A DNA stretch of 64,000 nt from Bacteroidota bacterium. Its GTDB lineage: Bacteria > Bacteroidota > Bacteroidia > Bacteroidales > WCHB1-69. A program made the position numbers and the translations under genes. The notes under the pieces are model-generated. The model was not told the origin of the DNA. It worked only from the letters and a program-made list of their open reading frames with translations, and did no database searches. Shown piece by piece: positions 16,833 to 64,000 of the stretch (position 1 is its first letter; every line of letters starts with the position of its first letter). The stretch is taken from contig JAKIZI010000001.1 of NCBI GenBank assembly GCA_022708105.1, positions 16,942 through 80,941 of the forward strand, in the 5' to 3' direction.

Positions 16833-17279
16833 CTAAATTTTATTTTTCTTATCTAAAGCATTAAAGATCAATTGGTCTATTGAATATTTTCCGGGTCCGG
16901 TAATAATCAACATTAAATAAACGGAACCATATAGTAAGGATAATTCTTTGGATGCAAAAGGATCTGCTCCGTGTACCATTAATCCTGCCACCAGCATTCC
17001 TATCAACAAAGGGATTGCTGACAAACGCGTTGCTACACCAAAGATTAAGAAAATAGAGCATAGAAATTCCGCCAATACAATCAAGAATAAAGAAGCCGTT
17101 GCTCCTATTCCGATTGGATCGGGGAACATTGCAGTGTTCCCGCCCAATAACATCATCAATTTTCCGAATCCATGAGTCAACATAAACGCTCCGACAATAA
17201 TCCGAACCATCAATAATCCGATTGATTCAAAGGAGGTATTAATCCCCGGATGAAATATTTTTTTAATTATCTCTTTCAT
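16833..17279 (-). CDS. DoxX family membrane protein
   Basis: 148-aa protein with 4 TM segments and the DoxX-like pattern (LLMVRIIVGAFMLTHGFGK...). Confidence 0.65.
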   Translation of the reverse strand: MKEIIKKIFHPGINTSFESIGLLMVRIIVGAFMLTHGFGKLMMLLGGNTAMFPDPIGIGATASLFLIVLAEFLCSIFLIFGVATRLSAIPLLIGMLVAGLMVHGADPFASKELSLLYGSVYLMLIITGPGKYSIDQLIFNALDKKNKI

Positions 17280-18391: not shown

Positions 18392-18537
18392 AATCATAAT
18401 TTTTGGTGAATAATTATTGCAAGTATAATTAAAAAAAGTAATAAAACAAAAAAAAAGAAAAAAGAGATTCCTATTCAATATCATTGATTTTCTTACGTTC
18501 ACAATGTTATATAGTTGTTTTTTTGCTTAAAAAAATA

Positions 18538-18545
18538 TATTTTTG
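18538..18545 (+). promoter_or_regulatory. Bacteroidota -7 promoter box (TAnnTTTG)
   Basis: TATTTTTG lies 22 nt upstream of the ATG at 18568. Confidence 0.5.
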
Positions 18546-18567
18546 CACCAAAAAAAAGAAAAAATCG

Positions 18568-23099: not shown

Positions 23100-23240
23100 T
23101 ATAATCTTATTTTCAAGGTAATTTTAATACTCTTAACTTTTATTATGAATTTAACTTGCAAAAATATAAAAAATTAACATAAACCTCTTCAAGTATGCGA
23201 ATAATTTCGGGTTTATTTAAAAAAAATGTATTTTTGCGTT

Positions 23241-35742: not shown

Positions 35743-35885
35743 GCTTAGAATGTTCAACTAATTTGAGTTAAAAAATCAACGTTTATTTTAGATTCATAAA
35801 TTAAAAACTAAAGAGTACCTGCAACTTGCCAGCTATTAGAAAAAATTAATCAGAACTACATTAAAAATTCAAAAAAAAGCGATAA

Positions 35886-37730
35886 TTATCTTATTAAAGT
35901 GACAGTTCCGTAATAAATCTTTTCATCTTCACTAAAATCATACAATGTAATTCTATAAACATATACTCCCAAAGGAGCAATTTCTCCATTGGGCAAAGAG
36001 CCATTCCACCCACCAAAAAGCTCATTCGTCTTAAATATTAATTGTCCGTATTGGTTATAAATTACCATTTCATAATTTTCAGGCATAATACCAATTCCTT
36101 TGGGTGCGAAAATATCATTAAGACCATTTTGACGATAAGGAGTAAATGAATTGGGAACATAAAAATTAAATGGAGTTGTAATGAGCACTCTTCGACAAAG
36201 AGTATCGGCACAATTATGAGCGGTAGAAACCACCTGACAAATATTGTACAATCCAGGTCTTGTATAAACATATAATGGGGAAGGCACATCAGAAAAATTT
36301 CCGGAAGCTCCCTGATCTCCGAAACTCCATTTCCAAAATTCAGTTCCTTCCGATAAGTCGGTAAAGTTAATCACAGCCATTCCTTCTTCCATCTCTTTGG
36401 AATACGCATCCGCAATAAAATCAGCAACAGGGGTTGGATAAACCATAATGGAGTCTGTCACAACACAACCATTGGTATCTGTTATAACTACAACGTATTG
36501 GGTAGGAACACTCACTTGAGGAAGGATTGAATAAGATGTTTCACCTGAATTCCAAACATAACGCACAGAAGGATCGTAGGGAGACACTGAAACTCTGTTC
36601 CCTGAGCAAATCTCATCAAGTAAAGAATAACTATTGGTTTGGCCGTATCTAATGGTAGCAGATGACGAAGAAACACACCCAAAATCAGAGGTAACCGTCA
36701 CAGAATATGTTTCAGTTTGTGTTGGAACAACCGTTATGATTGAATCGGTACTCCCGTTACTCCATTCATAAGTTCCGCCTCCGGAAGCTTGAAGAGAAAT
36801 CGTATCTCCGTCACAAACAGCAGGATTCGGAGGGGTAATATTGACAACTGGGAGTGGGTAAATTTGGACAGAGGTGCTTTCGGTAAAAGTTTCACCCTGA
36901 TGAATCATTTGAAATGTATATGTTCCGGACATTGCGGCAGTAGTATTCTGAATAACAGGATTTTGCAAATTTGAAGTCCAGTTATTCGGGCCTGTCCATG
37001 AATAGGTAGCTCCGGCTTGGTAATTGTCGCATGTAAAAATAAGTGTCTCCCCTTCGCACAAAGGTCCGTTATGGCTTACTGAAGCCAAGAGAGAACAGTC
37101 TGTATTTGCAGAACCAGAAGATTGGGAAAAAGTAATCGTTCCGGCGCTTCTCGAATAATTTGTAAGAAGTAAAATATAATATTGTCCTACTTGAGCATTG
37201 GGAATATAGCACCATTCAGTTCCGACAGCACTATAACTACAATCCACTAAATTTCCGTTTGGATAGCCCCCCCAAGAGCTTGGATTATTGGGGTCATGAT
37301 ATCCGCCTGAAGGCACATGGCTCCCGCTGGTCACGTTATCCAAATTATACTGTCCTGTACAAAGATTATTGATAAATGCAGATTCATTCGAAGCATTAAA
37401 AGGGCCCCAGCATGCAAAGTCAACATCAATTTCATATCCGCCAACTGATACTTGTCTTATATGAATTAAAAGATCTCCGGGAGAAGAAATTCTGAGATAG
37501 TAATAAGCAGGAGCTGGCATACTATACAAACAGGCATAACTGGAAGAACCAAAAAAAGAGGAAGCATCACCTGATGTTCCCGAATTATATGTGATTCCGT
37601 ATGGATTATCATCAGTACAGAATGGATTTATTCCATTAACATCACAAGGCGATTGCGCTCTTAACTGCTGTACCCCAGATATTAAGAAAAAGAGTCCGAT
37701 AAGAATGCAAAGAATACTTCGATTTTTCAT
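35886..37730 (-). CDS. T9SS type-B C-terminal domain surface protein, paralogue B
   Basis: 614 aa, colinear with paralogue A (SPCDVNGINPFC...DVDFACWGPF, YSWTGPNNWTSNLQNPVIQNTT, FTPYRQNGLNDIF...GTVTLIR). Confidence 0.75.
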   Translation of the reverse strand: MKNRSILCILIGLFFLISGVQQLRAQSPCDVNGINPFCTDDNPYGITYNSGTSGDASSFFGSSSYACLYSMPAPAYYYLRISSPGDLLIHIRQVSVGGYEIDVDFACWGPFNASNESAFINNLCTGQYNLDNVTSGSHVPSGGYHDPNNPSSWGGYPNGNLVDCSYSAVGTEWCYIPNAQVGQYYILLLTNYSRSAGTITFSQSSGSANTDCSLLASVSHNGPLCEGETLIFTCDNYQAGATYSWTGPNNWTSNLQNPVIQNTTAAMSGTYTFQMIHQGETFTESTSVQIYPLPVVNITPPNPAVCDGDTISLQASGGGTYEWSNGSTDSIITVVPTQTETYSVTVTSDFGCVSSSSATIRYGQTNSYSLLDEICSGNRVSVSPYDPSVRYVWNSGETSYSILPQVSVPTQYVVVITDTNGCVVTDSIMVYPTPVADFIADAYSKEMEEGMAVINFTDLSEGTEFWKWSFGDQGASGNFSDVPSPLYVYTRPGLYNICQVVSTAHNCADTLCRRVLITTPFNFYVPNSFTPYRQNGLNDIFAPKGIGIMPENYEMVIYNQYGQLIFKTNELFGGWNGSLPNGEIAPLGVYVYRITLYDFSEDEKIYYGTVTLIR

Positions 37731-37956: not shown

Positions 37957-37966
37957 CATGTTTTTG

Positions 37967-38040
37967 TGGAGCGTACGGGAGTCGAACCCGTGACCTTTAG
38001 ACTGCCAGTCTAACGCTCTAGCCAACTGAGCTAACGCCCC
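37967..38040 (-). tRNA. tRNA-Ala (anticodon GGC)
   Basis: The reverse complement GGGGCGTTAGCTCAGTTGGCTAGAGCGTTAGACTGGCAGTCTAAAGGTCACGGGTTCGACTCCCGTACGCTCCA folds as a cloverleaf. It has a 7-bp acceptor stem with the G3:U70 alanine identity pair, anticodon loop CTGGCAG and T-loop GGTTCGA. CCA is not encoded. Confidence 0.9.
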
Positions 38041-38137: not shown

Positions 38138-39043
38138 ATGGAACAACTTAATCAGTTTACTTCCGACATCTATGTCAAAATGTTTTACCAATATCTCCAA
38201 TTAGAGAAATCATATTCGTCTAAAACGATAGAGGCATATATGCATGATCTTAATAAATTATATCTCTTTTTAGAGGAAAAGAAAAGGCTTGAAGAGGTTG
38301 CTCTTGAGGATTTACATTCTTTTTTATCATATTTATATAAGCAACAAATTTCACCCCGAACTCAAGCACGCATCATTTCAGCACTCAAAGGTTTTTATCG
38401 CTATTTAATCTATGAACGAATAATTTCTGAAGATCCTACAGAATTATTAGAATCTCCGAAAATAGGGAGGCATCTCCCCGAAGTTCTTTCTATTCCGGAA
38501 ATTGAATCGATTATCAGAGCCGTTGATTTGAGCACAAATGAAGGACATCGCAACAAAGCCATTATTGAAGTTTTGTACGGGTGTGGTTTACGCGTAAGTG
38601 AACTCATTCAATTGAAAATTTCTCAACTCAGATTTCAGGAAGGATACATCAGAATTATCGGCAAGGGCAATAAGGAACGATTGGTTCCGATAGGTAAAAC
38701 CGCACAAAAAGCAATTCTCTTGTACATGGAAGACCGTTCAAATCTCACCATCAAGAGAGGAAATGAAGATATTCTCTTCCTTAACAGGCGTGGGGGACAA
38801 CTCACACGAGAAATGATTTTTATGATTGTCAAACAGTTAGTCCAACTATCCGGGGTTTCAAAAAATGTAAGTCCACATACTTTCCGGCATTCTTTCGCAA
38901 CTCATCTTATCGAAGGAGGAGCCGATTTGCGTGCCGTCCAAGAGATGTTGGGACACGAAAGCATCACTACAACCGAAATATACACCCACCTGGATAAAGA
39001 GTATATTAAAAGTAATATTTCTCTTTTTCATCCTCGATATTAG
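38138..39043 (+). CDS. xerD: site-specific tyrosine recombinase XerD
   Basis: N-terminal SAM-like domain (LEKSYSSKTIEAYMHDL) and catalytic residues in context (GLRVSEL, HTFRHSFATHLIEGGADLRAVQEMLGHESITTTEIYTH). Confidence 0.85.
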   Translation: MEQLNQFTSDIYVKMFYQYLQLEKSYSSKTIEAYMHDLNKLYLFLEEKKRLEEVALEDLHSFLSYLYKQQISPRTQARIISALKGFYRYLIYERIISEDPTELLESPKIGRHLPEVLSIPEIESIIRAVDLSTNEGHRNKAIIEVLYGCGLRVSELIQLKISQLRFQEGYIRIIGKGNKERLVPIGKTAQKAILLYMEDRSNLTIKRGNEDILFLNRRGGQLTREMIFMIVKQLVQLSGVSKNVSPHTFRHSFATHLIEGGADLRAVQEMLGHESITTTEIYTHLDKEYIKSNISLFHPRY

Positions 39044-51333: not shown

Positions 51334-51809
51334 AATCCCATAAATATAACCTGCGACAAAATTACGGAAATTTTCTATTTGGCAGATGATTTTTGCAAAG
51401 AATTTTATGCTGTTCTCGATAAGAATTCATTAGGAAAAAATCCAAAAAGAAAACCGATGATGTCTCACAGTAAAATTATAACGATTATGATTTTATTTCA
51501 CTATGGTTCTTTTCGTAATTTTAAGCACATTTACTCCTATTATGTTCCTTTTCATCTACGTTCATATTTTCCCAAAACAGTTTCTTACAATCGATTTGTT
51601 GAATTAATGGAAAAAGAAACATTAGCCTTGACAATAATGCTTCACATTTGTTGTTTAGGCCAAGATAACGGGATTGCTTTTGTAGATTCCACCCCAATAA
51701 GAGTGTGTAAAAATAAACGTATCGCAATAACGTATTTAAAGGTCTTGCTGCCATTGGCAAAAGCATCGTGGAATGGTTTCATGGATTCAAATTACATCTG
51801 ATTATTTAA
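51334..51809 (+). pseudogene. IS982-family transposase remnant (no ATG start, frameshifted, 3' half missing)
   Basis: KITEIFYLADDFCKEF...ITIMILFHYGSFRNFKHIYSYYV...FPKTVSYNRFVELMEK...IAFVDSTPIRVCKNKRI matches the IS982 transposase N-terminal half. Homology continues in the next reading frame (-1 relative to the first) from 51729 (NVFKGLAAIGKSIVEWFHGFKLHLII) and stops at 51807-51809. About 155 of roughly 290 codons are present. Confidence 0.65.
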
Positions 51810-51867
51810 TATCGAACTCCGATTGATACATAGAAAAGGATAACTTACTCTCAAATTATATTATTTT

Positions 51868-51999
51868 GTATTTTATAGAATACAATTTTTATATACTTTT
51901 GTATTTTAGAAAATACAAAAATTATATTATTTTGTATTATATAGAATACAATTTTTATATATCTTTGCATTTTATAAAATACATTTTATATCTTTGCAA
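51868..51999 (+). repeat. four 16-bp palindromes (GTATT-N6-AATAC) phased exactly 33 bp apart within a 66-bp tandem duplication
   Basis: gtattttatagaatac at 51868, gtattttagaaaatac at 51901, gtattatatagaatac at 51934, and gcattttataaaatac at 51967 (one arm mismatch). The 66-bp units 51853-51918 and 51919-51984 differ at a few positions. Confidence 0.85.
51989..51996 (+). promoter_or_regulatory. Bacteroidota -7 promoter box (TAnnTTTG), third of three tandem copies
   Basis: TATCTTTG lies 16 nt upstream of the ATG at 52013. Earlier copies are TACTTTTG at 51894-51901 and TATCTTTG at 51960-51967. Confidence 0.5.
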
Positions 52000-52012
52000 A
52001 AAAATAAAAACC

Positions 52013-53215
52013 ATGAAACAATTATTTTTAGCATTTTACCGCAAATTAGAAGAGACTGACATGCGTTTTGAACGATATTTAAAAAATCAAATCGACTGGA
52101 ACAATCGGCTAATTGCGATTACAGGGGCACGTGGAACAGGAAAAACCACCATGTTGTTGCAACACATCAAAGAACAATACGGCAATCATCCTGATCATGT
52201 ACTATTTGTGAGCTTAGATAACATTTATTTCAGCTCCCGAAATTTGTATTCATTGGCTGATGAATTTTATGCCTTCGGCGGAAAAGAATTATATTTGGAC
52301 GAAGTACATAAATATCCTACTTGGGCTCAAGAAATCAAAAATATATATGATGATTTTCCTAAAATAAAAATTATTTTTACAGGTTCATCCATGTTGCAAA
52401 TTTTGAAAGCAGATGCTGATTTAAGTCGTCGTATTCGGCATTTTCAATTATATGGTTTATCCTTTCGAGAATTTTTAATTTTCGAAGGACTTATTCAAAA
52501 GTCGCAAAGTCCATATTTACTTGAAGATATTCTTAAAAATCACTTGGCGATTGCTCAGAAATTTAATAAAGAATTTACCCCGTTACCGGCATTTCAGAAA
52601 TACCTTAAATTTGGATATTATCCTTATTATCAAGAAGATATTGCGGGTTATGGTGAACGTGTCTTGCAAACTTTCAATACCGTGATAGAGAGTGATCTGC
52701 CAAATGTTGAGCGTATTGATTTCTACTCAATCAACAGAATTAAAAAGCTGTTTTACATACTTTCGGAAATGGTTCCCTTTGCGCCAAATATTTCGCAATT
52801 GAGTCAAATGGTAGATGTAACCCGCACGAGTTTAATGAATTATCTTGGGCTTCTCGAAAAATCACATAGTATTTTATTACTTAAAAAGAAAGCGACGGGA
52901 ATAAGACAAATGGTTAAGCCGGAGAAGATTTACTTGCAAAACACCAACTATAATTATGCTCTTGCTCCGGAAAATCCACAAATCGGAAATGTACGGGAAA
53001 CTTTTTTCTTTAACCAACTACAACAAAATCACGATGTTAGCTTTACTGAAGAGACGGATTTTTGCATTGACGGAAAATACTATTTTGAGATAGGCGGCAA
53101 AAATAAAAGCAACATACAAGTAAGAAATTTAGAGTATGCATATTTGGCACTTGACGGTTTGACGATTGGTTTTCAGAACGAAATTCCTCTATGGTTATTT
53201 GGTTTTTTATATTAA
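52013..53215 (+). CDS. AAA-family ATPase (AAA_14 plus DUF4143-type architecture)
   Basis: Walker A ITGARGTGKTT and Walker B LYLDEVH, about 400 aa, typical of Bacteroidota 'ATP-binding protein' genes. The track start at 51866 translates the AT-rich repeat array, so the ATG at 52013 (MKQLFLAFYRKLEE) is preferred. Confidence 0.7.
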   Translation: MKQLFLAFYRKLEETDMRFERYLKNQIDWNNRLIAITGARGTGKTTMLLQHIKEQYGNHPDHVLFVSLDNIYFSSRNLYSLADEFYAFGGKELYLDEVHKYPTWAQEIKNIYDDFPKIKIIFTGSSMLQILKADADLSRRIRHFQLYGLSFREFLIFEGLIQKSQSPYLLEDILKNHLAIAQKFNKEFTPLPAFQKYLKFGYYPYYQEDIAGYGERVLQTFNTVIESDLPNVERIDFYSINRIKKLFYILSEMVPFAPNISQLSQMVDVTRTSLMNYLGLLEKSHSILLLKKKATGIRQMVKPEKIYLQNTNYNYALAPENPQIGNVRETFFFNQLQQNHDVSFTEETDFCIDGKYYFEIGGKNKSNIQVRNLEYAYLALDGLTIGFQNEIPLWLFGFLY

Positions 53216-53217
53216 CA

Positions 53218-53234
53218 TTTGAGATATTCTCAAA
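53218..53234 (+). terminator. weak hairpin after the ATPase gene
   Basis: tttgaga-tat-tctcaaa starts 3 nt after the stop. No clear T-run follows. Confidence 0.3.
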
Positions 53235-53285
53235 ATTCGGTTCAAACTACAATTAATGTATTGGTTTATTTAATGTGAAAAAAGA

Positions 53286-53293
53286 TTACATTT
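53286..53293 (+). promoter_or_regulatory. Bacteroidota -7 promoter box (TAnnTTTG) for radA
   Basis: TACATTTG lies 21 nt upstream of the ATG at 53315. Confidence 0.5.
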
Positions 53294-53314
53294 GCATCTT
53301 AAAACAGAATTTGT

Positions 53315-54703
53315 ATGGCGAAATTAAAATCTTCATTTTTTTGCAAAAATTGTGGTGCACAATCGGCTAAATGGATGGGACGTTGTCCCTCATGTGGCGA
53401 ATGGAATACGTTTGAGGAGGAGATTTTAGTCCGTGCAGACCCACCCAAAGGAAAATCTTCCGGAATGGGTATTCCTTCCTCTCCAAAGTTAATTGAGGAT
53501 ATTTCGCTTACGGAATTGCCCCGACTTAAATCAGGATTTCGAGAACTGGATGGGGTGCTGGGCGGCGGTATTGTGCGTGGCTCCATCATTCTGCTTGGAG
53601 GTGAACCCGGTATCGGAAAATCTACCTTATTGCTGCAAATGGCTATGGCCCTATCTGATACAAAGGTACTTTATGTTTCGGGTGAGGAGAGTGAAAGTCA
53701 GTTGAAAATGCGGGCAGAACGATTAGAAATCAATACCAACACAGAACATTGTTATATCCTTACGGAAACCAATACGCAAGAGATTTTTCAACATATCGAC
53801 CAACTTCGGCCGGATGTAATTATCATTGATTCCATACAAACGTTACAGAGCAACTTATTGGATTCTGCTTCTGGTTCAATTTCACAAATCAAGGAGTGTG
53901 CAGCGGAATTTCAGCACTTGGCAAAGACAACGGCCATCCCCGTCTTCTTAATTGGTCATATTACCAAAGATGGCACATTGGCCGGTCCGAAGATTTTGGA
54001 ACATATTGTGGATACGGTGTTGCAATTTGAAGGCGATCAACATTACGGATACAGGATTGTGCGTTGCACCAAGAACCGGTTCGGCTCTACTTCAGAGTTG
54101 GGTATTTTTGAGATGACCGGGAACGGTTTGCGCGAGGTTCTCAACTCTTCGGAAATATTGTTGTCTCAGCGGGACGAGGATTTTAGCGGAAATGCTATTG
54201 CGGCGATTCTTGAAGGAAATCGACCTTTGATGATTGAGACACAAGCACTGGTCAGCTCGGCAGTTTATGGCATGCCGCAGCGCTCCGCCACCGGATATGA
54301 TATTCGACGCATGAACATGTTGCTGGCAGTATTAGAAAAACGCTGTCGTTTCAAATTAGGAGCTAAAGATGTATTTATCAATATTGCCGGTGGTATTCAT
54401 GTGGAAGATCCGGCCATTAATCTCTCTATTGTAGCCGCTATTCTTTCTTCGGTCACCGACATTCCGATAGATGCCAAAACCTGCTTTGCGGGTGAAATGG
54501 GATTAAACGGAGAAATTCGTGCGGTAACTCGCATCGAACAGCGAATTACCGAAGCCGATAAATTGGGCTTTACCCGAATATTCCTTTCCAAATATAATAT
54601 GAAAGGACTGAAACAGAATCAATTTGGGATAGAACTCATTCCTATTGGGAAAATCGATGAAATCTTTGCGTTGCTTTTCGAACCCAGGGAAAGCAAATCC
54701 TGA
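53315..54703 (+). CDS. radA: DNA repair protein RadA/Sms
   Basis: Zinc finger CKNCGAQSAKWMGRCPSCGEWNT, Walker A GGEPGIGKSTL, the KNRFG motif, and a Lon-protease-like C-terminal domain. Confidence 0.92.
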   Translation: MAKLKSSFFCKNCGAQSAKWMGRCPSCGEWNTFEEEILVRADPPKGKSSGMGIPSSPKLIEDISLTELPRLKSGFRELDGVLGGGIVRGSIILLGGEPGIGKSTLLLQMAMALSDTKVLYVSGEESESQLKMRAERLEINTNTEHCYILTETNTQEIFQHIDQLRPDVIIIDSIQTLQSNLLDSASGSISQIKECAAEFQHLAKTTAIPVFLIGHITKDGTLAGPKILEHIVDTVLQFEGDQHYGYRIVRCTKNRFGSTSELGIFEMTGNGLREVLNSSEILLSQRDEDFSGNAIAAILEGNRPLMIETQALVSSAVYGMPQRSATGYDIRRMNMLLAVLEKRCRFKLGAKDVFINIAGGIHVEDPAINLSIVAAILSSVTDIPIDAKTCFAGEMGLNGEIRAVTRIEQRITEADKLGFTRIFLSKYNMKGLKQNQFGIELIPIGKIDEIFALLFEPRESKS

Positions 54704-54764
54704 TAATTTCTTAGAATTGCTTTGAACTCGAATAAAGGTAAAATGAACGAAAAAAAATATAAAT

Positions 54765-55484
54765 TTACTTAATTTTGAGGAGATCCTCCGGAGTGTCAAT
54801 GGCTATATTTTCATGGAAACACTCGGCCACGGAAATGGAATAGCCGTAGTCGATCCAGCGGAGTTGTTCCAACTTTTCGGCTTCTTCTAAGGACGATTTC
54901 GGGAGCAGGATTAATTCCTTCAGCGTTTTATACCTATAAGCGTAAATGCCGATATGTTTGTATCGATTTACCGAAACCGAAGATTCATCACGGACAAACG
55001 GAATCGGAAACCTGCTGAAATAGATAGCTTGATGCTTTTGAGAGAAGAGCACTTTCACCATATTGGGATTTTGAACATCCTCCGTCGCGGGGTCTATTTT
55101 TTTTACAAGGGTGGCAATCCGGACTTGCTCCGATTTAAATTCGGCCATCAGCAATTCAATCTCCTCTTTTCGAATAAAGGGTTCATCGCCCTGAATATTG
55201 ATGACCACATCCTCCTCCGTCAGTCCGAGCAAACGAGCAGCTTCGCCGCAGCGGTCGGTTCCGGAGGGATGTTCCGGAGAAGTCATCACCACTTCTCCCC
55301 CAAAATCGAGAACAACTTTCCGAATGCGCTCATCATCGGTAGCAACAACTACTTTGCTTAAGGAAGCACTGTTTACTTGTTCATACACCCATTGAATCAT
55401 GGGCTTCCCTTTAATCAGGGCTAATGGTTTTCCTGGAAAACGGGAAGAGGCGTAGCGTGCCGGGATAATACCTATAAAAGCCAT
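54765..55484 (-). CDS. kdsB: 3-deoxy-manno-octulosonate cytidylyltransferase (CMP-KDO synthetase)
   Basis: IIPARYASSRFPGKPL, VVVATDDERI, INIQGDEPF, HIGIYAYR. Confidence 0.88.
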   Translation of the reverse strand: MAFIGIIPARYASSRFPGKPLALIKGKPMIQWVYEQVNSASLSKVVVATDDERIRKVVLDFGGEVVMTSPEHPSGTDRCGEAARLLGLTEEDVVINIQGDEPFIRKEEIELLMAEFKSEQVRIATLVKKIDPATEDVQNPNMVKVLFSQKHQAIYFSRFPIPFVRDESSVSVNRYKHIGIYAYRYKTLKELILLPKSSLEEAEKLEQLRWIDYGYSISVAECFHENIAIDTPEDLLKIK

Positions 55485-55496
55485 AATCCGGTATGT

Positions 55497-56114
55497 TTAT
55501 TTGAAAAGGCCGTATAGTTCGGCATTAATTTTTTCGATTACAATACCAAAATCTTCGGCTTTTTCTCCAAATTTGATCGTATTAACATCCACAACAAGGA
55601 GTTTTCCTCTGTTGTAGTTATTAATCCAATTTTCATATCGTTCATTAAGATGTTGCAAGTAGTCGATTCGGATTGAATTTTCATAGTCTCGACCTCTTTT
55701 TTGAATTTGAGCGACCAACGTTGAGGTATCTGCTTTGAGATAGATGAGCAGGTCGGGGGCTTGCAGGAATTGAGCCATCAGTTCAAAGAGAGAGGCATAA
55801 TTTTCAAAATCTCGCGTAGGCATAAGTCCCATAGCATGAAGATTCGGGGCAAAAATGTAAGCATCTTCGTATATTGTTCGGTCTTGAATTACATCTTTTT
55901 TCTTCTGTCGAATTTCGATAACTTGTCGAAAGCGATTATTCAAGAAGTAAACTTGCAAATTAAAAGACCAACGTTGCATGTCTTCATAAAAACTTGCAAG
56001 GTAGGGATTATTGTCTACACTTTCGTACATGGGCTCCCATCCGTAATGTTTGGCCAGCATGTTGGTTAGTGTGGTTTTTCCAGAACCGATGTTTCCTGCT
56101 ACAGCGATATGCAT
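55497..56114 (-). CDS. deoxynucleoside kinase
   Basis: P-loop IAVAGNIGSGKTTL and a dNK-family ERS-like region (QDRTIYED) with the lid region. Confidence 0.8.
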   Translation of the reverse strand: MHIAVAGNIGSGKTTLTNMLAKHYGWEPMYESVDNNPYLASFYEDMQRWSFNLQVYFLNNRFRQVIEIRQKKKDVIQDRTIYEDAYIFAPNLHAMGLMPTRDFENYASLFELMAQFLQAPDLLIYLKADTSTLVAQIQKRGRDYENSIRIDYLQHLNERYENWINNYNRGKLLVVDVNTIKFGEKAEDFGIVIEKINAELYGLFK

Positions 56115-56192
56115 AAAATATATGATTAAATTTATAAAAATTGATAATATCAGAGGGTTGAAATGGTTTGTGACAAAGATAAAAAAAAATGT

Positions 56193-58190
56193 TTATTCCG
56201 TCAGATTATTTTTTGTTTTTGTTTTCAGAGAGTGTGATACAAGATAGGTGCATAGTAGAAGGAACATAACGATAGACAACACATTAAACGGAGCAGAGCC
56301 GATCCATTGTGCCGAAATATTCGGTTCAATTCCGGCATATTTAAGGATGGCGCTCACAACTCCCATGATAGCTCCGCCGGCCAACAATCCCGAAGCGAGC
56401 AGGGTCCCTTTTTCTTTACGTGCTTTATTGAGTGCTTCGTTTTTACTTCTGCTGCTAATCAGCCAAGCGATAAATCCACCCACGAGCAATGGAATATTCA
56501 GTTGAAGCGGAATAAACATCCCTAGAGAGAACGCAAGAGCAGGAATGCCGATACGGTCAAGGACGATAGCGAGGATAGCCCCGATGATATAGAGCATCCA
56601 AGGGGTTTGTCCTCCGAACATTAGCGGTTCGATGATGGCAGCCATGGCGTTGGCTTGTGGAGCTACTAACGAATTTTCACCGGTGTATCCGTAAGTTTTG
56701 GAAAGAATAATGATTACACCGCCTACCGTCAGAGCAGAAACAAACGTTCCGAGGAACTTGAGGGCTTGTTGTTTATATGGAGAAGAACCTATCCAGTAGC
56801 CGATTTTAAGGTCAGTGATAAAGCCCCCGGCCATAGCCAACGCAGAGCATACAATCCCGCCCACGATCAAGGCCGTTATAATCCCGGTTCCGCCTTGTAA
56901 ACCCACTGCAGACAAAATAAATGAAGAGAGAATCAGCGTCATCATGGTCATCCCTGACACAGGGTTGGTTCCTACGGTAGCAATGGCCGTTGCAGCTACT
57001 GTCGTAAAGAGAAACGCAAAAATAAAAATAACCAGAAGTCCCACAATTATTTGGGTAAGATTCATACTCAAACCACCAAACAAAAAGAATACGAAAATAA
57101 GCAGTGCCACGGCAAGGAATCCAAAGAGAATAATTTTCATAGAGATATCTCGTTGGGTTCTCAGTATTTTATGGTCATCGTCGTCGTGTTTGGATTTACT
57201 TGCTTTAAAAACCACTCCGAAAGAAGACTTAATCACCCCTGCGGATTTGATTACCCCAATAATTCCGGCCATTGCGATCCCACCGATGCCGATATATCTT
57301 ACATAGTTAGAAAATATCATTTCGGGGTCGAGGGTTTGCATCAGAATGCCGTCTGCGGTTACTCCGTATTGTCCGAGCAAGGGCACGATAAACCACCATG
57401 AGAGCAAGGAACCAGCGCAAATAATCACCGAATATTTGAGTCCTATCAGGAAGCCCGTACCGAGCAGAATGGAACCGGCATTCATTTTAAATACAAATTT
57501 GTAGTCCATGGCCAATTTTTCTCCGAAAGAGGACATCCGAGAGGAGATATTTTCTGCCCACAGTTGGAAGGTCGTCATAAGGAAATCGTAAAGACCACCG
57601 ATGAGCCCACTGATTAGCAATAATTTAGCTTGAGAGCCCCCTTTGGCACCGGAAACTAAAATTTCGGTGGTAGCCGTTGCTTCGGGGAAGGGATACTTCC
57701 CGTGCATATCGGAAACAAAATATTTCCTAAAAGGAATGAGGAACAAAATCCCGAGAAAACCACCGAAAAGGGAGGCTAAGAATATTTGGAAGAAGTTGAT
57801 TTGCATATTGATATCGGGATTCTTCTCCTGGATGATGTATATTGCCGGGAGTGTAAAGATGGCTCCGGCGACAATCACACCCGAACTTGCTCCGATGGAT
57901 TGTATAATCACATTCTCAGAGAGAGGGCTTTTGCGTTTAGCCACAGTGGAGATGCCCACCGCGATAATGGCAATGGGAATGGCGGCCTCGAACACTTGTC
58001 CGAATCGTAGCCCCGAGTAAGCTGTTGCCGCGGAAAAAATTACGGCCATCAGGATTCCCCAAAGGACGGTCCATGTATTGATTTCAGGATATTTTTTAGA
58101 GGAGAGTAAAACCGGTTTGTATTCTTCGCCCTCTTTCAGTTCAGAATAGGCGTTATCGGCTAATTTAATTTCTTTTTCTTCTTCTGCCAT
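56193..58190 (-). CDS. OPT-family oligopeptide transporter
   Basis: 665-aa polytopic membrane protein. The N-terminal region (ELKEGEEYKP...TWTVLWGILMAVIFSAATAYSGLRFG) and overall pattern resemble the OPT superfamily. Confidence 0.75.
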   Translation of the reverse strand: MAEEEKEIKLADNAYSELKEGEEYKPVLLSSKKYPEINTWTVLWGILMAVIFSAATAYSGLRFGQVFEAAIPIAIIAVGISTVAKRKSPLSENVIIQSIGASSGVIVAGAIFTLPAIYIIQEKNPDINMQINFFQIFLASLFGGFLGILFLIPFRKYFVSDMHGKYPFPEATATTEILVSGAKGGSQAKLLLISGLIGGLYDFLMTTFQLWAENISSRMSSFGEKLAMDYKFVFKMNAGSILLGTGFLIGLKYSVIICAGSLLSWWFIVPLLGQYGVTADGILMQTLDPEMIFSNYVRYIGIGGIAMAGIIGVIKSAGVIKSSFGVVFKASKSKHDDDDHKILRTQRDISMKIILFGFLAVALLIFVFFLFGGLSMNLTQIIVGLLVIFIFAFLFTTVAATAIATVGTNPVSGMTMMTLILSSFILSAVGLQGGTGIITALIVGGIVCSALAMAGGFITDLKIGYWIGSSPYKQQALKFLGTFVSALTVGGVIIILSKTYGYTGENSLVAPQANAMAAIIEPLMFGGQTPWMLYIIGAILAIVLDRIGIPALAFSLGMFIPLQLNIPLLVGGFIAWLISSRSKNEALNKARKEKGTLLASGLLAGGAIMGVVSAILKYAGIEPNISAQWIGSAPFNVLSIVMFLLLCTYLVSHSLKTKTKNNLTE

Positions 58191-58424
58191 AAGTATATAT
58201 TTTTTAGAAAATAGTGCTACAAAAATAAAATAAAAAGTTGAACATACAAGAAAAAAAAGAGATAAAATAACTTTTATCGGGATTGTTAGAAGCGCCCTGA
58301 AAAGTTAATGTTTTAAGGGTAATGAGGTTTATCTGAGATTATTTGTAGATTGGTAGTGTTTCAAAAGATGAAATAGTCTGTTGCACCTTTTATACTATAT
58401 ATTGTATTAATCAGAATAAACCCA

Positions 58425-58432
58425 TATTTTTG
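58425..58432 (+). promoter_or_regulatory. Bacteroidota -7 promoter box (TAnnTTTG)
   Basis: TATTTTTG lies 12 nt upstream of the ATG at 58445, which argues against the track TTG start at 58430. Confidence 0.45.
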
Positions 58433-58444
58433 TGCACAAAAAAT

Positions 58445-59410
58445 ATGGGCATGAAAACCATAAAAGAATTTAAAGGATTAGCCGGTATATCAAAGAAATT
58501 TGAAAATTACAACTGGCTTTATTCCCTTATTATTTGTGCTTGTTTTTTCCCATTTATGTCACCGGCAATTGCTTTATTTATTGGCTTACTGTTTTCTATT
58601 ATCGGACTCAGGCATGAAAATTTACATAAGTACACCTCAAAAATTCTTCAGGCATCCATAGTTTTAATGGGTTTCGGGATGAGTCTTGAAACTGTAATTT
58701 CATCCTCAAAAACGGGTTTTATGGAGACGATTGTTTCTGTAACTACGGTCATGTTATTAGGGATTTTCCTGGGAAGATTGTTTAAAGTTGAAAAAAATAT
58801 TGCATTGCTTATTTCTACGGGAACGGCTATTTGTGGAGGAAGTGCCATCGCTGCTGTGGCACCGATACTTAACAGCAAAAACTATCAAACCTCGTTTGCA
58901 CTTATCGTAGTTTTTGTGCTGAATGCAGTAGCTTTATTTTTGTTCCCGTTTATCGGACATCAATTAGGGTTAAGTCAGGAAACTTTCGGAAATTGGGCGG
59001 CCATTGCTATTCATGATACCAGTTCGGTGGTTGGTGCCGGGGCAATTTATGGGGAACAGGCATTGCAGGTAGCTACCACGGTAAAACTTATCCGGGCTTT
59101 GTGGATTATTCCGTTAGCCCTCGTAATTGCACTTATGACTAAAGGCGGAGAAAAAAAATCAATTAAATTTCCATGGTTTATTTTGTTTTTCGTATTAGCC
59201 ATTTTATTTGCCCATATATTCCCCATATTCGAGACAAGTTACGAGCATTTTAACTGGTTAGGCAAACGCGGAATGGTGATTGCTTTATTTCTGATAGGTT
59301 CAAATATCACCGTAAATGAAATTAAACAATCAGGAACAAAAAGTTTTGTATTTGGAATTATTTTATGGATTGTTATTACTCTGGGTTCGTTGTTTTTTTT
59401 AACACGATGA
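58445..59410 (+). CDS. YeiH/UPF0324-family putative sulfate exporter
   Basis: About 320-aa polytopic membrane protein with GTAICGGSAIAAVAP and AIHDTSSVVGA motifs. Confidence 0.65.
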   Translation: MGMKTIKEFKGLAGISKKFENYNWLYSLIICACFFPFMSPAIALFIGLLFSIIGLRHENLHKYTSKILQASIVLMGFGMSLETVISSSKTGFMETIVSVTTVMLLGIFLGRLFKVEKNIALLISTGTAICGGSAIAAVAPILNSKNYQTSFALIVVFVLNAVALFLFPFIGHQLGLSQETFGNWAAIAIHDTSSVVGAGAIYGEQALQVATTVKLIRALWIIPLALVIALMTKGGEKKSIKFPWFILFFVLAILFAHIFPIFETSYEHFNWLGKRGMVIALFLIGSNITVNEIKQSGTKSFVFGIILWIVITLGSLFFLTR

Positions 59411-59596
59411 GCAATGGTCATGAAAACTAATGCAAGCAAAAGAAAGCTACTAAAAGTCGGTAAAGTTGATGAAAAACCGAGGGTGTTTTAAATTTGTTAT
59501 TCATTAACTATTTAATACAATAATAAACCTCTTGCGACGTTGAACAAATAGCTGAATTAAACCTTATAAAGATAGTAATTTTTAGATTAAAAGAAT

Positions 59597-61384
59597 ATGA
59601 AAAAAAAGATTGAATTTTGTCTATTGTATCGGGATATGTGGCAATCCTCCGGAAAATATGTACCCAGAGTGGATCAATTGAAAGAGATTGCTCCGGTGAT
59701 TGTGAAGATGGGATGTTTTTCGAGAATTGAATCGAACGGTGGGGCATTTGAGCAGGTGAACTTATTGTATGGAGAGAATCCGAACACCGCGGTAAGAGAG
59801 TGGGTAAAGCCGTTCAATGAAGCGGGCATCAAGACCATGATGTTGGAGCGGGCGTTGAACGGATTGAGGATGTATCCGGTGCCTGCAGATGTGCGTCAAT
59901 TGATGTTTAAAGTGAAAAAAGCTCAGGGGGTGGACATTGCCCGTTCGTTTTGCGGGTTGAACGATCCACGGAACCTCGAACTTTCAGTAAAATATGCCAA
60001 AGAGGCTGGGATGATTTCACAGGCGGCACTCAGCATCACCTATTCGGAAATCCATACCGTAGAATATTACATGAGTGTAGTAGATGAGGTGGTGAAATTC
60101 GGAGCCGATGAGATTGCCTTAAAAGATATGGCGGGTGTTGGAAGACCGGTTATGTTAGGACGATTAGTGAAAGCCATTAAAGATAAGTACCCCCATATTT
60201 TGGTGCAGTACCATGGACACTCCGGACCGGGTTTTTCGGTAGCTTCGATGTTGGAAGTAGCCAAAAACGGGGTTGATATTATAGATGTGGCAATGGAACC
60301 GCTCTCTTGGGGAATGGTTCATCCTGATGTTATTACCATTCAGGCCATGTTGAAAGATGCCGGTTTCGATGTGCCGGAAATTAATATGAATGCTTACATG
60401 GAAGCAAGAAGTTTAACGCAGAAGTTCATTGATGACTTTTTGGGTTACTTTATTGACTCTAAAAATAAGATGATGTCTTCCTTGTTGGTCGGTTCAGGTT
60501 TGCCCGGAGGAATGATGGGATCGATGATGGCCGATTTGAAGGGTGCCCACAATGGGATCAATATGTTTTTACGAAATGCCGGAAAAAAGGAGTTGACGGA
60601 AGATGAATTATTGGTTCAATTGTTTGAAGAGGTAAGTTATGTATGGCCTAAATTGGGAAATCCTCCGTTGGTTACGCCTTTCAGTCAGTATGTAAAAAAT
60701 GTGGCGTTGATGAATATTCTCCAGATGTCGCAGGGCAAAGAGCGATACAGTCAGATTGATAAAAATACATGGGACATGATATTGGGCAGAACCGGTAAAT
60801 TGCCGGGCACGTTGGCACCGGAGATTGTAGCTTTGGCGGAAGAGAAAGGGTATGAATTCTTTACCGGAGTTCCTCAGGACAACTATCCTGATGAATTGCC
60901 TGCTTTCCGTAAAGAGATGGAAGAGCAAGGCTGGGATTTGGGACAAGATGAAGAGGAATTATTCGAGTTGGCTATGCATGATCGCCAATACCGAGATTAT
61001 AAATCAGGAGTTGCCAAGAAGAAGTTTGAAGAGGAGTTGGAAAAAGCGAAGAATAGTTCTGATATCAAAGTGGTGATTAAAGAGGTGAAAGCGCCGGAAG
61101 TGATTAAAGAGGAGCTGATTACAAAAATCAAGCAAGAACATCCGGAGGCGAAACCGGTGATCGCAACGGTTTCAGGGACGGTATTGTGGGAGTTGGCGAT
61201 AGATGAGCCTTCCATTGAGAAACCGGTGGGAACCAAGTTCGAAGAAGGTGATTTGGTATGCTTTGTTTCGGCCTATTTTGGCAATGAAGAGATCAAGGCT
61301 TTATACCCGGGAAGACTATGCTCTATAATCGCCAAACAAGGCGATAAAGTGATGAAAGGCGAAATAATTGCATTTATAGAATAA
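59597..61384 (+). CDS. carboxyltransferase 5S / oxaloacetate-decarboxylase-alpha-like protein with C-terminal biotinyl-like domain lacking the biotinylation lysine
   Basis: HMGL-like TIM-barrel homology (GADEIALKDMAGVGRP, VQYHGHSGPGFSVASMLEVAKNGVDIIDVAMEPLS) and a conserved carboxylase domain. The C-terminal hybrid-barrel region reads GDLVCFVSAYFGNEEIKA where EAMKM is expected. Confidence 0.65.
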   Translation: MKKKIEFCLLYRDMWQSSGKYVPRVDQLKEIAPVIVKMGCFSRIESNGGAFEQVNLLYGENPNTAVREWVKPFNEAGIKTMMLERALNGLRMYPVPADVRQLMFKVKKAQGVDIARSFCGLNDPRNLELSVKYAKEAGMISQAALSITYSEIHTVEYYMSVVDEVVKFGADEIALKDMAGVGRPVMLGRLVKAIKDKYPHILVQYHGHSGPGFSVASMLEVAKNGVDIIDVAMEPLSWGMVHPDVITIQAMLKDAGFDVPEINMNAYMEARSLTQKFIDDFLGYFIDSKNKMMSSLLVGSGLPGGMMGSMMADLKGAHNGINMFLRNAGKKELTEDELLVQLFEEVSYVWPKLGNPPLVTPFSQYVKNVALMNILQMSQGKERYSQIDKNTWDMILGRTGKLPGTLAPEIVALAEEKGYEFFTGVPQDNYPDELPAFRKEMEEQGWDLGQDEEELFELAMHDRQYRDYKSGVAKKKFEEELEKAKNSSDIKVVIKEVKAPEVIKEELITKIKQEHPEAKPVIATVSGTVLWELAIDEPSIEKPVGTKFEEGDLVCFVSAYFGNEEIKALYPGRLCSIIAKQGDKVMKGEIIAFIE

Positions 61385-61411
61385 AAATCCTTGTCATTTT
61401 CATTTTTTTCT

Positions 61412-61419
61412 TACTTTTG
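61412..61419 (+). promoter_or_regulatory. Bacteroidota -7 promoter box (TAnnTTTG)
   Basis: TACTTTTG lies 67 nt upstream of the GTG at 61487. Confidence 0.4.
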
Positions 61420-61486
61420 CATGGAAATGGGCAACTTATCATAAGAGGAGTTGTCTATTTCCATAATAAAGAATAGGATTTAAATA

Positions 61487-64000
61487 GTGAAATTGGTGAG
61501 CATATTCAGAGGCAAAATATTTTACTCTTTTTTTTGGGTTTTATGCTTAATGATGATATCTTTTTCCGTTTCGGGACAAGGTATGGGTAATTATTACCTG
61601 AGAACAAACACTATTGTAAGTATAACTTCATGTGCCGGTTTTATCTATGATAGCGGGGGACCTAACGCCAACTATTCCGACAATTCCGATGCACGGATTG
61701 AAGTCTTTTCGGCGCAGTCGGGATTTATGGTAACCGTCAGTGGTACTATCTGGTTGGAGACCGGAGATACCTTGATTATATATGACGGAGCAGGTATCGG
61801 AGGAACGATTCTCTTTAAAGGAACCAGCCCATCGAATGGTACTGCTTTAACCATTCCGACATACACATCAACGACAGGTCCGTTAACCATTCGTTTTATC
61901 ACCAACGGCAGCGGAAATGCACAGGGGGTGGAGTTGATGATCAGTTGCATAGACCAGAATGTTTACGTAGAAGATCCGCCTGAAGACACAGCAAGTTGTA
62001 TTAATTTTACCGACCTGACAGGTAGTCAAGTTACATGTTACTATGGTGATTTTTCAAATCCTTATGCAAATACCGGAGTTGCTGCGGGGCGGCATCAGGT
62101 AATTACAAATGTTAATCAGGTAGATCCTTACTCAAATGGGGGGTTATATTGCGTAAGACCGGGAGAAATCGCTTCGGTTCAATTAGGAAATTCTTCCGTA
62201 GGTGCACAAGCAGAGGCCATCATGTATGAGTATTATGTAGATACGAACAATTACGATATTTTGGTATTAAAATATGCAGCCGTCCTTCAAGACCCGAGTC
62301 ATACTGCTGCACAGCAGCCAAGATTTACATTCCAAATATTAAATTCTCAAAATGTGGAGATAGATCCGGTTTGCGGGTCTGCCGATTTTATATCAGGAAA
62401 TACTACGGACGGGTGGCATAATGTCAATAGCCTTTTTTGGAAAGACTGGACCAGTGTGGGAATAGACTTGTCCGCTTACCACAGACAAACCATTCGGATA
62501 CGTTTAACAACCTACGATTGCAGTCAGAGTGGTCATTTTGGCTATGCTTATTTTTCGTTTGAGTGTAAAAAGCGTAAAATTTCGGTAGAAACTTGCGGAA
62601 ATATTCAACAGAACACCTATACAGCACCCGACGGATTCCATTATAGGTGGTACTATTCCGATGATCCGGGCGTAACCTTATCCACAAATCGGAGTTATAC
62701 AGCTACGGTCGGGATGCAATCTCATATCTTATATTGCGATGTCTCTTTTGTGGACAATGCTTCATGTCATTTTACATTATTTGTAAATGTATCCCCGAGG
62801 TATCCGCTGGCAGATTTTACATACAGCAGGGTAGGGTGCAGCAACACCTTGTTTTTGAACAACACCAGCAGAACTTCTGCCGATGGGCTAACGCCGGACG
62901 GGAGCGGAAATTGGTGCGAAACGGCCTATTGGGATTTTGGGAACGGCACCACGTCAAATCTCTATTCCCCCACGGCGATTACCTATCCCGCTCCGGGAAC
63001 CTATACCATTACTATGATTGCCGGATTGGCGAACAATCAGTGTTTGGATACCGTCAGGAAGGTCGTCACGATTTTTCCCAATACAGTTCAGATTGCCGGA
63101 AATGCAGAAATTTGTAAAGGGGATACAACCACTTTGAGTGTAGCTGCCGGAGATTATGTTTATTGGAATTCAGGCCAAACTACGCATACCATCACGGTAG
63201 CTCCGGAGTCGGACAGAACCTATACGGTGGCAGCAACAACCGCCGACGGTTGTTATGCTACAGGAAGAATTGACGTACATGTCCACCCAACCTATTATTC
63301 TGAACAAATGGTTACCCTTGAAGATAACCAAACCTATTTCTTTAATGGGCAATGGATTAATTCTACAGGTGTTTATTATGAACAGCACCAAACAGTTCAT
63401 GGATGTGACAGCATTATTAAATTGACTATCCATCGCCGAATCAATCAATATGTCTCCATTTGCAGTACAGAAGTGTACTCGTTTATGGGGATGAACTTAA
63501 GTCAAACGGGCGTTTATACCGATAGTGTGCGATTTGCCAATGGTTGCGATAGTGTCTATCGGCTCCATTTAATAGTTAATCCGATATACTTCTTTCAAAC
63601 CAACCACAATATGTGTGATAATCAATCCTTCTTATGGAGGGATTCTTTGGTTGAAAATTTACCGGCAGGTTTACATTTACTCTATGATTCTATGCAAACT
63701 GCTGCAGGTTGCGATAGTATCTATTGTCTCCGCTTAATTGTCAGACCTACGACACGCATTTATGTCTATGATACCATTTGTCAAGGACAAAGTTTGCGCT
63801 TTTTGACCCAAAACTACACGGTCGAAGGGGTTTATGAAGTCACGCAAGTGCAAGCCAACGGCTGCGACCGTGTTCTGCAACTCAATCTGAAAGTTCACCC
63901 TGTCTATTTAATTCAAGACACGATTGCGATTTGCGATGACCAAACTTATAATTTCAGGGGAAGAATTCTCTCTCAACCGGGAATTTATTATGACAGTCTG
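61487..64000 (+). CDS. large secreted adhesin-like protein (signal peptide, CUB-like module, PKD-like module, Ig-like module, tandem Cys repeats); 3' end outside window; not in the supplied ORF track
   Basis: Manual translation shows the frame is open from the TAA at 61481-61483 to nt 64000 (838 codons). A signal peptide (VKLVSIFRGKIFYSFFWVLCLMMISFSVSGQG) exists only if GTG 61487, TTG 61493 or GTG 61496 initiates. PKD-like WDFGNGTTSNLYSPTAITYPAPGTYTITMIA starts at 62930. A GHFGYAYF module is present. GCD[SR] repeats at 63401, 63542, 63707 and 63860 are all in frame. Confidence 0.75.
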   Translation, partial: MKLVSIFRGKIFYSFFWVLCLMMISFSVSGQGMGNYYLRTNTIVSITSCAGFIYDSGGPNANYSDNSDARIEVFSAQSGFMVTVSGTIWLETGDTLIIYDGAGIGGTILFKGTSPSNGTALTIPTYTSTTGPLTIRFITNGSGNAQGVELMISCIDQNVYVEDPPEDTASCINFTDLTGSQVTCYYGDFSNPYANTGVAAGRHQVITNVNQVDPYSNGGLYCVRPGEIASVQLGNSSVGAQAEAIMYEYYVDTNNYDILVLKYAAVLQDPSHTAAQQPRFTFQILNSQNVEIDPVCGSADFISGNTTDGWHNVNSLFWKDWTSVGIDLSAYHRQTIRIRLTTYDCSQSGHFGYAYFSFECKKRKISVETCGNIQQNTYTAPDGFHYRWYYSDDPGVTLSTNRSYTATVGMQSHILYCDVSFVDNASCHFTLFVNVSPRYPLADFTYSRVGCSNTLFLNNTSRTSADGLTPDGSGNWCETAYWDFGNGTTSNLYSPTAITYPAPGTYTITMIAGLANNQCLDTVRKVVTIFPNTVQIAGNAEICKGDTTTLSVAAGDYVYWNSGQTTHTITVAPESDRTYTVAATTADGCYATGRIDVHVHPTYYSEQMVTLEDNQTYFFNGQWINSTGVYYEQHQTVHGCDSIIKLTIHRRINQYVSICSTEVYSFMGMNLSQTGVYTDSVRFANGCDSVYRLHLIVNPIYFFQTNHNMCDNQSFLWRDSLVENLPAGLHLLYDSMQTAAGCDSIYCLRLIVRPTTRIYVYDTICQGQSLRFLTQNYTVEGVYEVTQVQANGCDRVLQLNLKVHPVYLIQDTIAICDDQTYNFRGRILSQPGIYYDSL
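63281..64000 (+). repeat. protein-level tandem repeat (47-55 aa) ending GCD[SR]-[IV]-x2-L-x-L-x-V-x-P, at least 4.5 copies
   Basis: Units read ...NQTYFFNGQWINSTGVYYEQHQTVHGCDSIIKLTIH / CSTEVYSFMGMNLSQTGVYTDSVRFANGCDSVYRLHLIVNP / CDNQSFLWRD...LLYDSMQTAAGCDSIYCLRLIVRP / CQGQSLRFLTQNYTVEGVYEVTQVQANGCDRVLQLNLKVHP / CDDQTYNFRGRILSQPGIYYDSL... Confidence 0.8.

Follow-up and report, generated by a model that had tools for sequence, protein, structure and literature searches.

The last 2.5 kb of a 64,000-nucleotide stretch of Bacteroidota DNA (contig JAKIZI010000001.1 of assembly GCA_022708105.1, Bacteroidales, positions 16,942 to 80,941; the whole stretch is called the window here) raise the question whether they carry anything besides a few short open reading frames (ORFs). 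An earlier note, made from the sequence alone, had proposed that a large adhesin-like gene begins there with a non-ATG start codon and runs off the window end. If so, it has to be asked what the gene encodes and how it ends. The reading that we favour, with a probability of about 0.75, is a fibrillar adhesin that would be exported via a type IX secretion system (T9SS), anchored to the outer membrane, glycosylated and equipped with a probable glycan-binding head. Judged from an orthologous contig, the window holds the 5' third of the gene for this surface protein of approximately 2,570 amino acids (aa).

A conserved coding sequence at the window end

The ORF listing for the last 2.5 kb was identical to the one cited in the earlier note and comprised four short ORFs only (61672..61950-, 62424..62687-, 62734..63117+ and 63170..63448-). 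Translation of the frame of nt 61487 on the forward strand yielded the claimed 838 codons without a single stop through nt 64000 (feature 61487..64000, +), the nearest upstream in-frame stop being a TAA at 61481. Over the same interval the remaining five frames contain 29-68 stops each, and an open frame of 838 codons is expected by chance at this base composition with P ~4e-23. The listing excludes ORFs that run off either source end, thus the absence of the gene is a mechanical omission caused by the missing stop codon within the window, the explanation suspected before. Codon usage was scored as log-odds with 33 long ORFs elsewhere in the window as training set. The adhesin frame reached +0.129, the top score among the frames. 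Better coding statistics of the short ORFs had been named as an argument against the gene; on the same spans, however, the adhesin frame scored above all four (0.237 vs 0.05, 0.04 vs -0.165, 0.119 vs -0.142 and 0.14 vs -0.101). Comparison with three related loci gave dN/dS values of 0.088 (L003), 0.095 (L084) and 0.10 (L085), and third codon positions hold 112 of the 153 differences between window and L003. The interval 61487-64000 is a real, conserved coding sequence under purifying selection.

The only in-frame ATGs, at 61550 and 61553 (M22 and M23), would put just MMISFSVSG ahead of the cleavage site and destroy the signal peptide, therefore a non-ATG start is required, as had been reasoned in the earlier note. 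Among the three candidates named there, GTG 61487, TTG 61493 and GTG 61496, both GTGs held, but the TTG did not. The start region reads ATA GTG AAA T(T/C)G GTG in the window, L003 and L084, with TTG 61493 replaced by TCG in L084, i.e., unconserved. The codon before GTG 61487 (61484-61486) is ATA in these three sequences and ATG, followed by GTG AAA, in L004 and in L083, a 70%-identical relative; the annotated ATG of L001 aligns close to GTG 61496. Since TTG 61493 is not conserved and the starts of the relatives align at or near the GTGs, the comparison favours GTG 61487 or, alternatively, GTG 61496 as true start and disfavours the TTG. An ancestral ATG at 61484-61486 was seemingly lost in the window lineage, which left the adjacent GTG.

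Architecture of the predicted surface protein

Residues are counted from GTG 61487. The first 30 residues (61487..61576, +) form a predicted Sec signal peptide, the hydrophobic segment recognised earlier. Inspection and hydrophobicity revealed a basic n-region (MKLVSIFRGK), an 18-residue hydrophobic core with a mean Kyte-Doolittle value of 2.11 and a predicted signal peptidase I cleavage site, VSG|QG, with glutamine at +1. This glutamine is almost invariant across the family alignment, and the site agrees with the Q-rule of the Bacteroidetes, by which cleavage of the signal peptide exposes a glutamine (PMC5837995).

A CUB module follows at aa ~45-156 (61619..61954, +). The window copy had no match to the Pfam family CUB (PF00431) even at E<=1, and its assignment is transitive: BLASTP linked it to the two CUB domains of the homologue P0011 (E 5e-15, at 35% identity, and 3e-12), and the P0011 CUB is significant on PF00431 with 45 bits. 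A profile of 16 family N-terminal modules with the window copy as row 1 matched solved CUB domains, namely those of cubilin (6e-21) and neuropilin-2 (7e-16) as well as neuropilin-1, enteropeptidase, PCPE-1 and TSG-6, and 10 of the 16 modules matched PF00431. The CUB-like character proposed earlier was thus recovered with the family profile, though the window copy itself lacks a direct Pfam match. Classical eukaryotic CUB domains have four conserved cysteines in two disulfides. The window module does not conform to this pattern with only two, C49 and C154; several family members have four.

The second module, described in the earlier note by its ending GYAYFSFEC, is a highly conserved domain of about 200 aa and defines the family (aa ~170-361; 61994..62569, +; motif C..FTDL ... 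TTYDC..GHFGYAYF..C; from alignment and AlphaFold2 model). In 118 homologues it shows 50-60% identity, 11 positions being invariant and about 45 nearly so, four cysteines included; H41, D51, E81, D90, H110, R117, D165, D182 and H188 are among the near-invariant residues. AlphaFold2 predicted a jelly-roll beta-sandwich with confidence (predicted local distance difference test, pLDDT, 93.8; predicted template modelling score, pTM, 0.90). Foldseek retrieved 72 matches in the PDB at E<=1e-3 with template modelling (TM) scores of 0.35-0.47 and about 10% identity, which indicates the fold class only. They were led by a carbohydrate-binding module, CBM61, and included CBM27, CBM28, CBM11, the Kgp cleaved-adhesin domains K1/K2, sugar-binding F-box (FBA), MAM and Eph ligand-binding domains. 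The nearest structural neighbours, CBM61 (2xom), CBM27 (1pmj), Kgp K1 (4itc) and K2 (3km5), share the beta-sandwich jelly roll, but differ by a root mean square deviation of 5-11 Å and belong to no shared sequence family. No Pfam or NCBIfam model matched the module, and a NCBIfam scan of all 838 aa was equally without match. An exhaustive search of 1.84 billion cluster representatives identified the module in 3,311 proteins at E<=1e-3 and in 2,124 at <=1e-10. The shortest of these proteins have about 250 aa and the longest 5,742, and sometimes the module sits deep within giant proteins.

Three smaller modules lead to the repeats. For the first, defined by conserved alignment columns (aa ~363-440; 62573..62806, +; motif ETCG..TYTAP.GF.Y.WY) and without Pfam match, we infer an Ig-like fold. 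Of the PKD-like and Ig-like modules claimed before, the PKD domain (aa ~441-530; 62807..63076, +) passed the Pfam cut-off for PF00801 marginally, with 23.7 vs 23.5 bits over aa 479-516, a partial stretch of the model, and remained below the cut-off for PKD_4 (PF18911; 20.9 vs 27 bits). The equivalent region of homologues attained 38-44 bits (PKD_4 up to 44), and phmmer against the PDB returned weak PKD matches only, e.g., the PKD domain 4l9d. The Ig-like module was less clear: the stretch at aa ~531-603 (63077..63295, +), of the type associated with CHU_C, scored 17.7 bits on Ig_7 (PF19081), below the cut-off of 27.3, while the homologue P0001 had 27.4. We consider it a resemblance to Ig_7 rather than a confirmed membership. 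The hidden Markov model (HMM) of the repeats matches this module weakly too (21.6 bits).

The cysteine repeats noticed earlier have a period of 51 aa. This 'GCDS' repeat array starts at 63302 (63302..64000, +) with copies at aa 606-650, 652-702, 703-757 and 758-808 and a fifth that the window end truncates (809-838). An HMM iterated on the family gave the consensus IEIYATICDGETYTWNGFNYTESGTYTQTLQTINGCDSIVTLNLTVNPTYL, in which two cysteines, G-C-D-S and L-x-L-x-V-x-P are conserved. The repeat was found in 117 of 119 sequences (118 homologues and the window protein) in 1-18 copies apiece. Its profile had no Pfam family and no sequence relative in the PDB; P0001 gave apparent matches to FAXC_N and TACI-CRD2, which contain no significant stretch and were set aside as noise from repeat composition. 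The AlphaFold2 model of aa 596-838 is all-beta (pLDDT 89.2). Its top two Foldseek matches were the neck and the stem of GhpA, solved by cryo-electron microscopy (E 4e-8 and 5e-7, 14-16% identity, TM ~0.35), followed by generic strings of Ig, cadherin and Rib domains.

Of 439 repeats, 415 contain the motif C-D-S-[AILMTV], which fits the O-glycosylation motif of the Bacteroidota, D(S/T)(A/I/L/V/M/T...) (PMC8729774). Sites of this motif are in excess, 92 vs 9.8 +/- 3.0 expected in L085 and 9 vs 0.8 in the repeat part of the window. From this density the repeat stalk is probably heavily O-glycosylated.

The C-terminus had to be read from a relative. An exact 60-mer from the window end had no match in genome or metagenome contigs, and the gene extension was obtained via protein-guided scans of contigs. 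Nucleotides 1-800 of the metagenome contig L085 correspond to window 63201-64000 with 93% nucleotide identity and 95% aa identity over an overlap of 266 aa. The L085 ORF takes over at window aa 573, spans 1,995 aa up to a stop codon and comprises 35 repeat copies with an exact 51-aa period, arranged in two homogenised blocks, then a non-repeat stretch of about 75 aa without family match and a T9SS C-terminal domain (CTD). A CTD of type A or type B at the true C-terminus had been named as a check; in L085 it is of type B. The last 90 aa scored 52.6 bits on CHU_C (PF13585, cut-off 27) and 42.9 bits on the 'T9SS type B sorting domain' TIGR04131 (cut-off 35), and a Pfam scan of the last 300 aa returned CHU_C only. 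The composite of window and L085 has 2,567 aa and a mass of 288 kDa; the repeats hold 70 of its 90 cysteines.

Probable function and alternative readings

The architecture suggests a course from export to adhesion. The precursor would cross the inner membrane via Sec and be cut at VSG|QG, the new N-terminal glutamine being cyclised according to the Q-rule. The type B CTD would then direct the protein through the T9SS translocon, and a PorP/SprF-like outer membrane protein encoded elsewhere in the genome would take it over and retain it on the cell surface. PorP-like proteins anchor type B cargo (PMC9143113, PMC12618676). An experimentally supported model for this retention is PG1035 of Porphyromonas gingivalis, held by PorP-PorE (PMC9143113), although PG1035 has unrelated passenger domains, is far smaller and is not a repeat fibre. 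The repeats would form a long disulfide-stapled stalk, probably carrying many O-glycans; rough scaling from GhpA (5,898 aa for 240 nm) would give several tens of nanometres. This stalk would hold the N-terminal head of CUB, jelly-roll, Ig-like and PKD modules away from the cell. The head would bind a ligand, for which a glycan is the best guess, most likely one displayed on plant fibre, a particle or another cell; CUB, jelly roll and PKD are binding-type folds. Three further ORFs of the window encode T9SS CTDs, 17444-18502(-) of type A, and 33913-35757(-) and 35886-37730(-) of type B, thus the organism probably uses the T9SS.

Several points weigh against the adhesin. The CTD and most of the stalk lie outside the window and were read from the contig of another strain, whose repeat number may differ. 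Among the 27 window ORFs scanned was no gene of the T9SS machinery (sprA/sov, porK-N, porV), and no PorP/SprF-like gene adjoins the adhesin in the window or in L085, nor consistently in the family loci. Type B cargo is often accompanied by an adjacent PorP/SprF-like shuttle gene, which is not obligatory, as orphans exist (PMC12618676); the adhesin would be an 'orphan' type B substrate in this sense. The fold matches of the head are weak in TM score and identity and would speak for a beta-sandwich binding module, not for a specificity. The similarity to GhpA is structural only, as the repeat profile has no match among PDB sequences. Rather than being a glycosylation site, the D-S conserved behind the cysteine could have a structural role, and abundant T9SS cargo of P. 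gingivalis tends to avoid O-glycosylation (PMC8729774).

The alternative that survives best, unlikely as it is, would be a motility adhesin in the manner of SprB, a fibre with type B CTD that is moved over the surface by the gliding machinery and not static. SprB of Flavobacterium johnsoniae is likewise a giant repetitive surface filament with a TIGR04131/CHU_C type B CTD and binds the PorP-like protein SprF for anchoring (PMC9143113). The orthologue shares the CTD, which is called 'gliding motility-associated', and the giant repeat structure. However, neither the SprB repeat (PF13573) nor a neighbouring sprF or gld gene was found, the type of repeat and the head domains are others, and the family originates from metagenome-assembled genomes (MAGs) of anaerobic rumen, gut and digester Bacteroidales. 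Type B CTDs occur also on non-motility proteins, e.g., PG1035 (PMC9143113).

Slightly less likely still is a multimeric appendage in which several protomers lie side by side and build a rigid and hollow rod, glycosylated and tipped with a catching device, as formed by GhpA of Aureispira sp. CCB-QB1 (PDB 9flp, 9flw). GhpA, a Sec/T9SS substrate of 5,898 aa, combines an adhesin-like head with 52 Ig-like repeats, which bear disulfides and O-glycans, and a sorting domain at the C-terminus; it assembles into heptameric hooks of 240 nm, and homologues of PorP/PorE (ghpB/ghpC) are encoded downstream (bioRxiv 10.1101/2024.01.29.577165). Its fragments are the two best structural matches of the window repeats, the dense O-glycosylation motif fits, and the plan is common to both proteins: signal peptide, adhesin-like head, a long disulfide-containing beta-repeat stem and a T9SS CTD. 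In contrast, a TM score of ~0.35 at 14-16% identity goes along with no relation at the sequence level, the predicted adhesin has 35 repeats of a different, 51-aa type in about 2,567 aa, its head is built of different modules (CUB, jelly roll, PKD), and no ghpB/ghpC-like pair lies downstream in L085. We therefore regard the adhesin in kind as a T9SS-anchored giant repeat adhesin like SprB and GhpA, but not as a member of either family, because there is no sequence relation, repeats and head are different and partner genes are missing nearby.

A secreted degradative enzyme, in which the conserved 200-aa module is catalytic and the others serve as carbohydrate-binding modules or spacers, is very unlikely. 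The many near-invariant His, Asp, Glu and Arg residues of this module, as well as the frequent export of hydrolases by the T9SS, would suit such a function; on the other hand, no catalytic family was matched in Pfam, NCBIfam or PDB, the fold relatives (CBM61, 27, 28, 11, Kgp K1/K2, FBA, MAM, Eph ligand-binding domain) are non-catalytic binding modules, and a stalk of 35 repeats with a cell-anchoring type B CTD is better suited to an adhesin. Finally, one could take the four short ORFs for the true genes and the frame for a chance opening, a pseudogene or an assembly artefact. This suggestion has nothing in its favour except that the gene is missing from the ORF list and does not start with ATG, and it is refuted by the improbability of the open frame (~4e-23), a codon usage superior to all four short ORFs, the dN/dS of ~0.09, hundreds of homologues and the conservation of promoter box and leader.

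Expression signals, family and genomic surroundings

A TAnnTTTG box (TACTTTTG) preceded by a T-run was read in the sequence at 61412..61419 (+), 68 nt upstream of GTG 61487. The box is found in the same place in L003, L084, L083, L004 and L001, and TAnnTTTG stands upstream of many family genes. It corresponds to what we take to be the -7 promoter consensus of the Bacteroidota sigma-A factor, thus 61412-61419 is a predicted Bacteroidota-type -7 box. Directly after it, RNA folding and covariation indicated a conserved stem-loop of about 14-17 bp in the 5' leader (61421..61464, +). Its minimum free energy is -24.2 kcal/mol (z -5.45), G.U pairs included. In a small sample of six close relatives, 92.8% of the cells were paired with compensatory changes in three pairs; slid controls reached 38-51%. 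Compensatory pairs and folding energy point to an element acting at the RNA level. A family-wide role of the hairpin was ruled out: only the closest subgroup has it, and it is missing upstream of paralogues that are more distant. Long inverted repeats that would signal an invertible promoter were not present, just the leader hairpin and weak pairs.

The protein search yielded 416 homologues; the top match covers 98% of the query at 66% identity. Every named match belongs to a MAG of Bacteroidales, Paludibacteraceae or Bacteroidetes, and the subfamily has its nearest named relatives in a Lentimicrobiaceae MAG. In species-representative genomes at least 588 loci were counted, often several per genome and mostly in MAGs from rumen, gut and digesters. 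Among the best 120 of the 416 homologues, CHU_C (PF13585) is present in 92 and a tail of type A (PF18962) in 16; the other 12 have neither domain, and at least three of these are labelled partial. The annotated Bacteroidales relatives, e.g., P0019, P0023 and P0004, are true homologues with 35-66% identity and share jelly roll, beta module, PKD, GCDS repeats and CTD; they vary in the number of N-terminal CUB/fn3 domains, in the repeats (1-18 sampled vs 35 in L085) and in the CTD type. A literature search for the combination of CUB, T9SS, Bacteroidales and PKD architecture found no paper describing the family. It is large and unstudied, and its annotations go no further than 'gliding motility-associated C-terminal domain-containing' or 'PKD domain-containing' protein.

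The closest relatives are fragments. L003 shows 93.6% identity over window 60776-64000 and shares the upstream gene. This 3.5-kb contig (CAYNYC010000128.1) has been assigned to a MAG that bears the label 'uncultured Erysipelotrichaceae bacterium' and is almost certainly mis-binned Bacteroidales DNA. L084 is syntenic with window 51683-63150. Only L085, with the C-terminal part, reaches a stop codon among L001, L002, L003, L084 and L085; L001, L002 and L003 end within the repeat array, and L084 ends at aa 554. The near-identical repeats of 153 nt probably break short-read assemblies, therefore full-length sequences are rare in the databases.

The upstream neighbour in the window is an oxaloacetate-decarboxylase-like gene. 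Downstream in L085, on the opposite strand, are genes resembling those of glyceraldehyde-3-phosphate dehydrogenase and pyruvate phosphate dikinase (PPDK). A wrap-around, by which the PPDK-like gene at window 34-2121 would be the one downstream in L085, was rejected, as the two are only 24% identical. No neighbour is conserved over 61 family loci. Four candidate neighbours were scanned for PorP/SprF, of which three had no Pfam match and one was the unrelated Fib_succ_major; the recurring neighbours are tandem paralogues or housekeeping-looking genes, as judged from reading the sequences, not from searches. Tandem paralogues occur at L045, L053, L026 and L075, where the next gene begins 4 nt before the preceding stop or within 200 nt. 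In the Paludibacteraceae loci L028, L049 and L076 a conserved unannotated protein of ~310 aa is encoded immediately upstream, and in L016, L019 and L027 a lipoprotein of ~217 aa immediately downstream, both without Pfam family match.

Window 51683-63150 and L084 diverge in a mosaic fashion: they are 95-100% identical at 51.7-59.4 kb, 89% identical in the oxaloacetate-decarboxylase-like gene at 59597-61384 (dS 0.73, dN/dS 0.018) and 94% identical in the adhesin gene (dS 0.21). The gap between the two BLAST segments of L084 measures ~283 nt in L084 vs 86 nt in the window (59409-59493), and the pattern suggests an indel and recombination at this site. Elsewhere in the window, the two type B ORFs 33913-35757(-) and 35886-37730(-) are tandem paralogues of 614 aa that share 54% identity. 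In each, a signal peptide that ends A|QSPC is accompanied by PKD domains and a CHU_C type B domain; compared over the PKD region, they match the adhesin at 32-36% identity. The type A ORF 17444-18502(-) encodes 352 aa with a Por_Secre_tail (43.4 bits) and an otherwise unassigned passenger, and is overlapped by an ORF of 338 aa, 18484-19500(+), without Pfam match. A tRNA-Ala(GGC) gene at 37966-38040(-) adjoins a tyrosine recombinase of 301 aa (38138-39043(+); Phage_integrase and SAM-like N-terminal domain), which could be XerC/D or mark the edge of an integrated element. The ORFs 9894-11693(+) (599 aa) and 23226-24143(+) (305 aa) had no Pfam match at E<=1e-5.

The locus exemplifies how a 288-kDa surface protein would be lost from annotations that drop partial ORFs or demand ATG starts. 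The family is very common in uncultured Bacteroidales of rumen, gut and digesters, yet it is built on two domains without a library model. Its newness is descriptive and lies in two uncatalogued domains and a repeat bearing a glycosylation motif; that the most conserved motif of the repeat coincides with the O-glycosylation motif of the phylum makes for a concrete prediction. As a rather doubtful extension, jelly roll and C-D-S repeat may be the hallmarks of a class of surface fibres that is widespread among anaerobic Bacteroidales of rumen, gut and digesters, heavily O-glycosylated and possibly multimeric like GhpA. Such fibres might be a main means by which these bacteria attach to plant fibre or to partner cells, and the leader hairpin may add a post-transcriptional control. 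Giant T9SS fibres determine what Bacteroidota adhere to.

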